This document shows positions 39,187 to 50,428 of a stretch of 51,474 bases of DNA, one piece after another; the first letter of the stretch is position 1; each line of letters begins with the position of its first letter. The stretch comes from a phage. Made by a program: the position numbers and the translations under genes. The stretch is taken from sequence record PZ445410.1; one strand, given 5' to 3'. Below the pieces are notes generated by a model, which was not told where the DNA came from, did not search any database, and worked only from the letters and a program-made list of their open reading frames with translations.

Positions 39187-39888
39187 ATGAGTAAAGAAAC
39201 TGAAGTGACATTTGAACAAATAGAACGAGAAACATTCATTGGCAATGCTCTTGCTACTGGAGGCCATTACCAGGCTGTTAAACCAAATCAATATTTCAAA
39301 GTGACTGGCAACCGCTATAACGGCAGCAATACGCCTGACATTGTGCGCGATTTGTGGTCTACGCCGTATGAACTTGTCGCATGGATGGAAAGCGAATACG
39401 GTGATTATGACATCGACGCGGCGGCAAGCAAAGAAAATGCTGTATGTGAAAAATTCTACAGCAAGGAAACAAATTGCTTAAAGCGTTGGTGGGGTAGTAA
39501 CAAGCATATATGGCTGAATCCGCCGTACAGCAATATAACGCCTTTCGTTAAGAAAGCGATTGAGCAAATGGAGCACAATAACCAGATCGACATTCTGTTA
39601 CCTTGCGACACATCAACAGGATGGTTTTATGAAGCGCAGCAGCGCGCAGCGGAAATCATCTGGATCACTGGCGAAGTTTACCAGGAGGACGGAACAGAAT
39701 ATTCCCGCACAGGACGCCTTGCGTTTACCTCTGCTCTTACAGGTAAACCAGTACAGGGAAACAACAAAGGAAGCGTTATTTTCATCATGCGCGAACTTAA
39801 AGAAGGTGAGCAGCAGAAAACTCGATACGTTAAAATCAGCGACATTTGCCCTTCGGTGGCAGACCGTCGCGCACGGAAACGGAGCTAA
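39187..39888 (+). CDS. dam: DNA N6-adenine methyltransferase (Dam-like)
   Basis: NPPY catalytic motif in WLNPPYSNITPF; 233 aa. Confidence 0.7.
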   Translation: MSKETEVTFEQIERETFIGNALATGGHYQAVKPNQYFKVTGNRYNGSNTPDIVRDLWSTPYELVAWMESEYGDYDIDAAASKENAVCEKFYSKETNCLKRWWGSNKHIWLNPPYSNITPFVKKAIEQMEHNNQIDILLPCDTSTGWFYEAQQRAAEIIWITGEVYQEDGTEYSRTGRLAFTSALTGKPVQGNNKGSVIFIMRELKEGEQQKTRYVKISDICPSVADRRARKRS

Positions 39889-45581: not shown

Positions 45582-45800
45582 TTTGATCCGCTCTATGCTA
45601 ACTAAGATTTTTTCTGGTTCCCTTGCGCTATAGCAATTCGCGGTTACGGAATCAGCAAAATCAAAATAAAGTGATTTGTGGTAAGAAAGACCAATCAGCC
45701 ATCCAACCATCGTTTTCTTTATTGGCCTGACTATATCGCCAGGCTTGAAGGTTTTTGTTGCTGAATGAGTCACCTTATAGCGATATTCAGCCTTGATCAC
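45579..45800 (-). CDS. hypothetical protein (73 aa)
   Basis: ORF. Confidence 0.5.
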   Translation of the reverse strand: MIKAEYRYKVTHSATKTFKPGDIVRPIKKTMVGWLIGLSYHKSLYFDFADSVTANCYSAREPEKILVSIERIK

Positions 45801-46183
45801 TTATACATAGCCTCAAACAAATGACATCCACCAGCGGAAAAGCCTACTTCTTCGCGGTATAGCGTCCAGCGGTCGCCAGCTTCATCAAACACATAACCAG
45901 CAACAGCGCCAAGCGCGCGGCCTTGCTCAATCTGGTAGCGCTTTCCTTCTTTGAAATGCTTTTTGCACGGGATCTTGTGATCTACAAAGGTGCATTTAAT
46001 TGTTTTTGTCTTGATATGACGATAGTCAGACTCAACAGCGTTTTGCCACTTGCTACCCTTTGTAATGCTCTTTACCTGGAATTGTTCCAATTCGATCACA
46101 TCATCGCTACCAGCAATTTTTTCGTATACAGCTATATAACGACCGTTCATCAAAACATTGGTTTTATTGCAGATAACTTTCAT
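45797..46183 (-). CDS. hypothetical protein (128 aa)
   Basis: AGGAGAAATAAA RBS. Confidence 0.55.
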   Translation of the reverse strand: MKVICNKTNVLMNGRYIAVYEKIAGSDDVIELEQFQVKSITKGSKWQNAVESDYRHIKTKTIKCTFVDHKIPCKKHFKEGKRYQIEQGRALGAVAGYVFDEAGDRWTLYREEVGFSAGGCHLFEAMYK

Positions 46184-46214: not shown

Positions 46215-46257
46215 ATTATGCCAGGCTTTTACACCTGGCTTTTAACAAAAAGTGCTA
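46215..46257 (-). promoter_or_regulatory. TAGCAC-box promoter-like cassette (CATAAT)
   Basis: TAG is the stop of the methyltransferase-like gene; CCAGG..CCTGG inverted repeat in spacer. Confidence 0.5.
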
Positions 46258-46965
46258 TTTTGCGTTTGCTTCAAAGACGGCGCGAGCAAAACCGCGCGGT
46301 GTGAGGGAGCGGATCATCTTTGTGCGAGATGATTTTCCGCCAGTTTTGGCCCAACCAGGATTATCCTTGTCGTCCTCTTTCGGAAGGATTGTTGCGCGCG
46401 GAGGAATAACAAAACCGTTTCCAGTCCAAAGACATGTTTTCTTAAAGTACCGATCCCGCGCCGGAATAATATCAGGGAAGTCGGGATGCTTATCATCTTC
46501 CGGCAGATAGCCAGCATAATCGCACGGATGGAACGTATAATCAGGCTTGCGCCATAACGTTGACAGCTTGCCTACAGGATTCTCTATCATGTACGGAACA
46601 CCGAAATAATCAGCGATATGCGACGCAATTTTGCAAGTGTCGGCGGCCTCATCCTGGAAAGATGGATTCTCAAGGCGTTTTTTGGCCCAATGGCGAGATC
46701 CGCTATTTGCAAGGTCAGTGCATGGAGGGAATGCCATAATAAAATCAGGCTTACCCCAATTTTCAAGTTTTGCGGTATATTTGAATAGCTCATCAATCCA
46801 CACATTAACGTAAAAAATATTGTCGTGGATTATGCGCACTGATTGGTAGTCGCCATGATCTGCATCATCGTAATTAAAGCAAATGCACTTATATCCAGCG
46901 TCGGCCCAATCTTTAACAGCCTTTCCAGATCCATCAAACAAAGAGAAAATTAAACCTTTATACAT
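46255..46965 (-). CDS. compact C5-cytosine methyltransferase-like protein
   Basis: FDGSGK (motif I-like), FPPCTD (PC motif), MIENPVG (ENV-like) in canonical order; only 236 aa, no obvious target-recognition domain. Confidence 0.45.
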   Translation of the reverse strand: MYKGLIFSLFDGSGKAVKDWADAGYKCICFNYDDADHGDYQSVRIIHDNIFYVNVWIDELFKYTAKLENWGKPDFIMAFPPCTDLANSGSRHWAKKRLENPSFQDEAADTCKIASHIADYFGVPYMIENPVGKLSTLWRKPDYTFHPCDYAGYLPEDDKHPDFPDIIPARDRYFKKTCLWTGNGFVIPPRATILPKEDDKDNPGWAKTGGKSSRTKMIRSLTPRGFARAVFEANAK

Positions 46966-46974
46966 TTCATTACC

Positions 46975-47199
46975 TCAAAACGGAAAGCATCTAGGACAGT
47001 TCGGATCAAAATTGCAACCACAATCATTAACAATCATAGTTGGATCTGCAAATGCAGCGCCGCATTCATGGTTCATATCCATTTCACCCAACGCATCATC
47101 AAGCGTCCTGATTTTATATGCGACTTCAAGCGCTGCCTCTTTATTCAGTCCGGCATCTTCTGCTTTTTGCAGTCGCTCAAAAAAACCGTCTTGACTCAT
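46975..47199 (-). CDS. small Cys-rich protein (74 aa)
   Basis: C-terminal CGCNFDPNCPRC. Confidence 0.5.
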   Translation of the reverse strand: MSQDGFFERLQKAEDAGLNKEAALEVAYKIRTLDDALGEMDMNHECGAAFADPTMIVNDCGCNFDPNCPRCFPF

Positions 47200-47356: not shown

Positions 47357-47617
47357 TCATACAGCCTTCCAGCTTTCAATAAACATGCTGTTTTCTTCCA
47401 GCAGTTTAATCAATTCTTCGCGCGTATATTTGCGGATTTTACTACCTGGATGTGAGCCAACAACAAACACACCTTTACCACTCGTGATTGTTAACTGGTT
47501 GATTCCGCAAGATTTATCCATCTTAATGGCGACGCGGTGATGTGCATCAACAGTGTGCATGATGTTAGTGACTTTAGCTTTCATTATGCGATCCTCATTG
47601 TACTTAGTGTAGGACAT
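47357..47617 (-). CDS. hypothetical protein (86 aa)
   Basis: ORF. Confidence 0.5.
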   Translation of the reverse strand: MSYTKYNEDRIMKAKVTNIMHTVDAHHRVAIKMDKSCGINQLTITSGKGVFVVGSHPGSKIRKYTREELIKLLEENSMFIESWKAV

Positions 47618-47622
47618 TATAT

Positions 47623-47856
47623 TTACTTCAAATTCTCGATCTTGTTATTGCCAATTGAAGAATGAACGCAACGCTCTTGCGACTCCTTGTCGCCATGAAC
47701 ATCAATATAATAACCAGGTATGACAGTAAAAAACCAATTGCCACGCCAGAAGAAATAAAGGCCATGCTTGCTTCCTTTCGCGCATTTATTAGCATTTTTA
47801 GGTATTGGAAGTCCGTGTACTCTACGCAATTCTACATTCTTGTTAAAATTTGGCAT
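47623..47856 (-). CDS. hypothetical protein (77 aa)
   Basis: ORF. Confidence 0.5.
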   Translation of the reverse strand: MPNFNKNVELRRVHGLPIPKNANKCAKGSKHGLYFFWRGNWFFTVIPGYYIDVHGDKESQERCVHSSIGNNKIENLK

Positions 47857-48050
47857 TACACAACCTCCATAATAGTATTGAATCCACGCAGTTTGAAAGC
47901 ATTTCCATGTTTAACAACGTTCCATGTCAGGCCGGAGTGATACGCAACCATATCCTCAAGATCAATGGTGATGATAGCGCCTTTCTTAAAGATTCCTTTC
48001 TCGTGAGTAGTGTCACGCTGTACAACTTTAACATCAACTTGATTTTCCAT
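47856..48050 (-). CDS. hypothetical protein (64 aa)
   Basis: ORF downstream of promoter-like cassette. Confidence 0.5.
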   Translation of the reverse strand: MENQVDVKVVQRDTTHEKGIFKKGAIITIDLEDMVAYHSGLTWNVVKHGNAFKLRGFNTIMEVV

Positions 48051-48081: not shown

Positions 48082-48124
48082 AATATACCAATCAGAGGCG
48101 CATCGGTTTTAACAAAAAGTGCTA
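48082..48124 (-). promoter_or_regulatory. TAGCAC-box promoter-like cassette (TATATT)
   Basis: Motif follows TAA stop of ORF 48126..; CGATGCGC..GCGCATCG inverted repeat flanks the -10-like box. Confidence 0.5.
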
Positions 48125-50388: not shown

Positions 50389-50428
50389 CACTTTTTGTTA
50401 AAACGCCAGGTGCAAATCCTGGCATAAT
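50386..50428 (+). promoter_or_regulatory. TAGCAC-box promoter-like cassette (CATAAT at 50423-50428)
   Basis: TAG is the lipoprotein stop; GCCAGG..CCTGGC inverted repeat in spacer. Confidence 0.5.

Follow-up and report, generated by a model that had tools for sequence, protein, structure and literature searches.

Considered jointly, the fold, the sequence motifs and the published work on an orthologue indicate that dcm very probably encodes the phage's own SAM-dependent cytosine-C5 DNA methyltransferase, pared down to its catalytic domain, and that triggering of the retron Ec86 would be a side effect of this activity. The gene lies on the minus strand at 46255..46965 of the window (the whole 51,474-nucleotide stretch of phage DNA analysed here, record PZ445410.1). 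It starts with ATG, spans 711 bp with its stop codon, and encodes a minimal, DNMT3-like enzyme of 236 aa. An exact-sequence cluster look-up matches the protein exactly to QXV82308.1 of Escherichia phage KarlJaspers (BASEL Bas06), whose kin are Drexlerviridae, Tempevirinae, Hanrivervirus. The dcm gene is 92-96% identical in pSf-1, herni and JakobBernoulli, and the JakobBernoulli copy, bas07_0054, carries the same product name as in KarlJaspers ("Dcm-like" DNA cytosine methyltransferase). The gene was already annotated, and its orthologue in the sister strain K42 had already been characterised functionally.

The initial annotation, made from the sequence by eye, described a compact C5-cytosine methyltransferase without a normal target-recognition domain (TRD), and the fold, the motifs and the K42 work all support that description. 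The three landmarks it had listed are found in order in the 236-aa reading frame: FDGSGK from residue 10, FPPCTD from residue 79 and MIENPVG from residue 126. The first contains motif I (F10-D-G-S-G14), which is of the AdoMet-binding type F-x-G-x-G and follows directly on a strand modelled at residues 5-9; hhalign aligns it to SLFDGIATG of DNMT3A, and positions 4-82 of the Pfam profile PF00145 are covered. Motif IV is P80-P81-C82, of which P81-C82 pairs with SPCN of DNMT3A and FPCQ of M.HhaI in hhalign. C82, at the position of the catalytic nucleophile, is conserved at a level of at least 90% across the family. Motif VI, E128-N129-P130, aligns to ENV of M.HhaI with proline in place of valine, and each of its three residues is again conserved at 90% or more. 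Towards the C-terminus lie a motif VIII-like segment, R170-D-R-Y-F-K175-K176-T-C-L-W180, and a further motif, I218-R219-S-L-T-P-R-G-F-A.

The AlphaFold2 model, computed from an 83-sequence alignment (pLDDT 95, pTM 0.91), contains the catalytic-domain fold of C5-cytosine DNA methyltransferases. Its best Foldseek matches are DNMT3A/B (E about 6e-7), and its structural homologs in BFVD carry the name DNA-cytosine methylases. Consistent with this, hhalign places the family profile on the DNMT3A catalytic domain (PDB 5yx2_A) over residues 3-90 with E=1.4e-4; the corresponding alignment to M.HhaI, over residues 71-148 including PC and ENx, is weak (E=0.17). The wording of the motifs is DNMT3-like throughout (SLFDG, PCxDL, RxRYF...WxGN, RS(L/W)(T/S)), and RDRYFKK...W resembles RARYFWGN of DNMT3A by eye.

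The C-terminal half is less readily assigned. None of the sequence tools placed motif VIII (Q-x-R-x-R), motifs IX and X (GN[AS]V) or a distinct TRD. The C-terminal 27-aa peptide has no match in the PDB, ten C-terminal fragments have none in Pfam, and hhalign against the single sequences of DNMT3A and M.HhaI aligns the N-terminal half only, a forced global alignment giving nonsense. When the C-terminal RSLTPRGFARAV / IRSLTPRGFARAVF is compared with motif IX of M.HhaI (...AKTGG...RKLHPRECARVM), the local alignment speaks for motif IX, being matched or beaten by only 3 of 300 shuffles. In the AlphaFold2 model, IRSLTPRGFARAVF lies in a helix-linker-helix context that is motif X-like.

The spacing of the motifs locates the missing material. 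From PC to EN there are 47 residues in the dcm protein, 47 in DNMT3A and 39 in M.HhaI, and from EN to the motif VIII region about 46, 34 and 44, respectively. From the motif VIII region to the C-terminal motif, the TRD-bearing interval, the count is 44 in the dcm protein as against 100 in DNMT3A and 140 in M.HhaI. Only this last interval is shrunken, which bears out the earlier remark that the protein is too short for a normal variable region.

How such an enzyme would read its target can be approached from the pattern of conservation. The best-conserved parts across the family are PPCTDL (80-85), all of 121-190, and 219-229, and the variable, indel-prone parts are limited to 31-70, 111-120 and about 189-210; the loop at ~189-210, of about 20 residues, is for this reason the sole plausible candidate for a variable "mini-TRD". 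The block 131-190 (LSTLWRKPDYTFHP..YGGYLP...RDxYxKxTCLWTG) is specific to the family and probably forms a fixed DNA-contacting surface. Since there is no separate TRD lobe, target reading would have to rest on this conserved segment together with the variable loop.

The dcm protein belongs to a family that is very large yet mostly missed by PF00145, and whose members are inconsistently annotated as hypothetical, Dcm or site-specific methylase. By tblastn, the family is present in 1,502 phage records, including T1-like siphoviruses of Escherichia, Klebsiella and Salmonella, rV5-like and Phapecoctavirus myoviruses, Xanthomonas phage DIBBI, and others. Clustering at 90% identity gives 3,363 groups; at 50% identity there are 1,230 representatives (E<=1e-3), most of ~200-260 aa. 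The 236 aa of the dcm protein fall inside the range of the phage short Dcm family (about 225-260 aa), and its 90%-identity cluster, of 320 members, goes by the name Dcm-like / DNA cytosine methyltransferase.

The profile search that had been proposed as a check, with the DNA_methylase model, gave a divided answer: PF00145 scores 11.1 bits, below its gathering cut-off of 22, but PHROG 757 ("DNA methyltransferase"; phrog_757) matches residues 2-235 with E=6e-86. The low Pfam score is shared by the relatives, as PF00145 reaches E<0.01 in just 3 of 83 diverse family members, and in the three above-threshold relatives the match is confined to profile positions 4-94 of 324, corresponding to motifs I-IV. 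NCBIfam holds no model for the family. Single-protein searches of Pfam, NCBIfam and the PDB sequences returned sub-threshold matches or none, and a search of the PDB with the family profile returned M.HaeIII alone (E=0.17) besides a spurious kinase match.

Several relatives differ in architecture. In one distant member (P0262, 563 aa) the short Dcm domain is fused to a D12-class N6-adenine DNA methyltransferase, and in another (P0267, 348 aa) to an HNH endonuclease domain; dcm also has HNH genes for neighbours in several of the phages listed by tblastn. In several members of 400-450 aa, an N-terminal extension of ~180 aa finds no match in Pfam. Within the 90%-identity cluster of the dcm protein, many members from Warwickvirus relatives are annotated with a length of 257 aa, with a further 21 aa at the N-terminus from an upstream start codon. 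The dcm reading frame of PZ445410.1 has no room for such an extension; the Warwickvirus start annotation may be wrong, or the start may be genuinely different.

The function of the orthologue comes from the selection of escapers from retron Ec86 (Eco1) with phage KarlJaspers strain Hzau42 (K42), whose genome is 95.4% identical to that of Bas06 (Wang et al., bioRxiv 10.1101/2023.08.16.553469; Cell Rep 2024;43:114857). All four K42 escapers carried lesions within or just upstream of the 711-bp dcm, and expression of K42 dcm was toxic solely in cells carrying Ec86. LC-MS against a synthetic standard found high 5mC in the msDNA with wild-type K42 Dcm and not with the C82A/E128A/K175A/K176A mutant. 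In a dcm+ MG1655 control there was little 5mC in the msDNA until the phage enzyme was expressed, and changing either C of the CCTGG in the msDNA stem abolished Ec86 defence. The same authors remark that Dcm itself is apparently toxic, and their CCWGG target is adopted from E. coli Dcm (bioRxiv 10.1101/2023.08.16.553469). Later retron papers treat methylation of the msDNA as the established trigger.

K42 is a different isolate of the same phage species, and the likeness of its enzyme to the dcm protein rests on gene length and residue positions: the K42 gene is likewise 711 bp long, and all four of its catalytic and substrate-binding residues, C82, E128, K175 and K176, occur at identical positions in the dcm protein. 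For K42, then, 5mC formation that needs the catalytic residues, toxicity limited to Ec86 cells and escape through loss of dcm are shown; by analogy, the KarlJaspers Bas06 allele would be expected to behave in the same way.

The likely chemistry follows the canonical scheme. C82 of PPC would attack C6 of a flipped-out cytosine, and E128 of ENP would protonate N3. The methyl group of AdoMet would then pass to C5, and beta-elimination would free the enzyme. In the infected cell, Dcm would be expressed from a gene block of early or replication type and would methylate replicating phage DNA, probably at CCWGG. Such DNA would presumably be shielded from 5mC-sensitive restriction of the EcoRII type, above all in dcm-negative hosts. 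As a side effect, the enzyme would methylate the CCTGG stem of the Ec86 msDNA and so switch on the abortive-infection system. A role as a minimal anti-restriction methylase, one of the possibilities raised in the initial annotation, is plausible. In the BASEL study, the methyltransferase genes of Drexlerviridae bore no simple relation to their resistance to restriction, and a search of the literature found no mapped methylation motif, methylome or restriction-digest data for these phages. The sole demonstrated biological consequence is the triggering of Ec86, by the K42 orthologue.

The enzyme may be a true 5mC DNA methyltransferase whose target is not the host Dcm site, a reading that we regard as somewhat unlikely; it could instead recognise a shorter or relaxed motif (CCW, CCNGG, CWG), methylate CCWGG at its outer cytosine, or favour DNA that is single-stranded or in hairpin form. 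A candidate recognition loop of just ~20 variable residues leaves the enzyme almost without a TRD, and DNMT3A/B, nearest to it in structure, recognise a site of 2 bp. Little msDNA 5mC in dcm+ cells before the phage enzyme is supplied would be odd if that enzyme merely duplicated host Dcm, as would the apparent toxicity of Dcm itself. From the former observation it follows that the phage and host enzymes possibly differ, and this difference may lie in specificity, substrate preference or dosage; overexpression by itself could, however, account for the contrast. The dependence of Ec86 defence on both cytosines of CCTGG argues against a different target, and the highly conserved segment 131-190 could itself be a fixed, specific reading head. 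The genome, moreover, avoids CCSGG (2 observed against 12 expected in the window) but not CCWGG, as expected if the W form alone were protected. A more radical version is that the minimal DNMT3-like family is unlike host Dcm in how it reads DNA, whether by a relaxed or other motif, by favouring hairpin or replicating DNA, or as an obligate dimer. This is unlikely in our judgement, although it would explain the discrimination by Ec86: the retron would tell the phage enzyme from host Dcm by that difference, and not by the mere presence of 5mC at CCWGG. In a rarer variant of the idea, the conserved R219 would permit some use of Cx-SAM.

That variant touches on the suggestion of the initial annotation that the same fold might serve a different base modification. 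The group transferred could be other than methyl, for example carboxymethyl from Cx-SAM in the manner of CmoX, with host CmoA making the cofactor, or the activity could be dual. CmoX, a phage cytosine C5-carboxymethyltransferase supplied with Cx-SAM by E. coli, is marked by SPPC and by an arginine replacing N304 of M.HhaI (PMC12783734), and the FPPC and near-invariant R219 of the dcm family recall these marks, although the alignments gave no secure equivalence of R219 to N304 or to R350 of CmoX. The same arginine, however, is present in GRSWSVP of DNMT3A, a true methyltransferase and the closer structural neighbour (the residue equivalence being taken from published motif alignments), and R219 may be the first arginine of motif IX, given that 3 of 300 shuffles match or beat its alignment to RKLHPRECAR of M.HhaI. 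The product of the K42 orthologue in E. coli, furthermore, is 5mC, but Cx-SAM is the only cofactor that wild-type CmoX takes (PMC12783734). CmoX also has a canonical length, with a 372-residue chain (PDB 8yf3; Nat Commun 2025, PMC12783734) against 236 aa here, and usually has CmoA and a ligase for neighbours. No CmoA-, CmoY-, ligase- or hydroxymethylase-type gene is annotated in the 18.7 kb of JakobBernoulli that are syntenic, where the annotations comprise small early genes, helicases, lysis genes and Dam only. The natural fusion of a distant member to a D12-class N6-adenine DNA methyltransferase fits plain DNA methylation as well. A different modification thus finds no support in the K42 product or in the JakobBernoulli gene neighbourhood, and we consider it very improbable. 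Also very improbable, finally, is the view that the protein acts chiefly on RNA, as a Dnmt2-type m5C methyltransferase of tRNA, or that it is an anti-defence protein which binds DNA without catalysis. The preferred reading remains a cytosine-C5 DNA methyltransferase producing 5mC.

The composition of the window can be set beside this proposal. GATC and CCWGG occur at their expected frequencies, and several 6-bp palindromes are nearly absent (observed, with expected in brackets: GAATTC 0 (12), AAGCTT 0 (15), TCCGGA 0 (18), GGCGCC 1 (22), GGATCC 1 (13)); GGCC occurs 76 times against 132 expected. These counts fit protection of CCWGG and GATC, although statistics of this kind do not separate host from phage methylation. 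The most over-represented tetramer in the window is CCAG/CTGG (z=+7.4), and among the most under-represented are CCAA/TTGG (z=-7.0), CCTA/TAGG (z=-5.9) and CTAG (z=-3.5). In E. coli, such a pattern is classically ascribed to very-short-patch repair by Vsr, which acts on deaminated 5mC at CCWGG. Here, its cause may be Vsr of the host working on the phage DNA, or the phage may simply have adapted to the composition of its host.

The translation signals of dcm offer a further connection to the K42 escapers. The ribosome-binding region (46966..46977, minus strand) contains the Shine-Dalgarno (SD) sequence GAGG at -11 to -8 from the ATG. Two of the K42 escapers have a dC-to-dA mutation 9 bp upstream of the dcm ATG (bioRxiv 10.1101/2023.08.16.553469). 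In the window, the plus-strand base 9 bp upstream of the ATG is 46974, a C, which is the complement of the third base of GAGG; judging by position and base, 46974 would be the site mutated in these escapers. Because this base pairs with the third base of GAGG, a dC-to-dA change there would destroy the dcm ribosome-binding site. The GAGG also overlaps the TGA stop of a 74-aa reading frame directly upstream (46975..47199, minus strand), and this overlap implies translational coupling. The Cys-rich C-terminus of the 74-aa product (CGAAF...NDCGCNFDPNCPRCFPF) suggests a small zinc-binding protein. Further upstream, the transcription unit likely starts at an intergenic cassette at 48107..48121 (minus strand), the nearest such copy upstream of dcm, and the proposed operon would run through the reading frames 47856..48050, 47623..47856, 47357..47617 and 46975..47199 into dcm.

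Another copy of this cassette, at 46215..46254 (minus strand), adjoins the dcm stop. It consists of CACTTTTTGTTAAAA, the hairpin GCCAGG-N8-CCTGGC and CATAAT, is identical in JakobBernoulli, marks the 3' end of the dcm block, and is probably a promoter-like signal for the gene that follows (45797..46183). Fifteen copies are present in the window, where chance would give 0.37, and each is oriented with the genes around it (1352, 3999, 12525(-), 16286(-), 27052(-), 36595, 39113, 40154, 43410(-), 45578(-), 46254(-), 48121(-), 48998(-), 50389, 50852). The elements run from the TAG stop of the gene upstream through CACTTTTTGTTAAAA, a ~19-nt hairpin, a (C/T)ATAAT-like -10 element and the conserved CATCGAAACGA to an SD and an ATG, the last about 55-60 nt downstream. 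The hairpin arms vary between copies yet remain complementary, through compensatory changes in the stem. From TTGTTA to the -10 element is 22 nt, too far for a standard sigma-70 -35, and the opposite strand reads as a hairpin followed by TTTTAAC, which is terminator-like. The cassette probably serves as a phage promoter, or as a module that combines a promoter with an antisense terminator.

Two of the hairpins, at 46220..46239 and 50405..50423, have stems of paired CCWGG (GCCAGG-loop-CCTGGC; 2 against 0 expected), and the first, right downstream of dcm, resembles the CCTGG stem of the Ec86 msDNA. The idea that the hairpin near dcm is a Dcm-linked regulatory site was rejected, as it is one of 15 cassette copies whose hairpin sequence varies.

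Apart from dcm, the window encodes a Dam-like N6-adenine DNA methyltransferase at 39187..39888 (plus strand). It matches Pfam PF05869 with E=2.3e-60, confirming the earlier assignment, and its JakobBernoulli counterpart is annotated 'Dam-like N6-adenine methyltransferase'. In the conflict between phage and host, dcm appears to cut both ways, as presumed camouflage and as the infection signal for retron Ec86, the latter already published for this species.

Among known systems, the catalytic domain of DNMT3A/DNMT3B (PDB 5yx2, 6u8p) is closest in shape and in motif wording, with an identity to the dcm protein of just 12-18%. The dcm protein is about 50 residues shorter than this domain, and the DNMT3 regulatory domains have no counterpart in it. 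With E. coli Dcm and the EcoRII-type enzymes, M.HhaI and M.HaeIII it has in common the catalytic fold, the PC nucleophile and the ENx acid, and with E. coli Dcm and the EcoRII type also the presumed target CCWGG and the product 5mC. Canonical bacterial C5-methyltransferases are built of two lobes with a TRD of 80-100 residues; the dcm protein has neither and, unlike them, shows no recognisable QxRxR or GN(A/S)V. With 236 aa, where M.HhaI and M.HaeIII have about 330, it is one of the smallest C5-methyltransferases in design, and its structure in complex with DNA would reveal the minimum for sequence-specific cytosine methylation.
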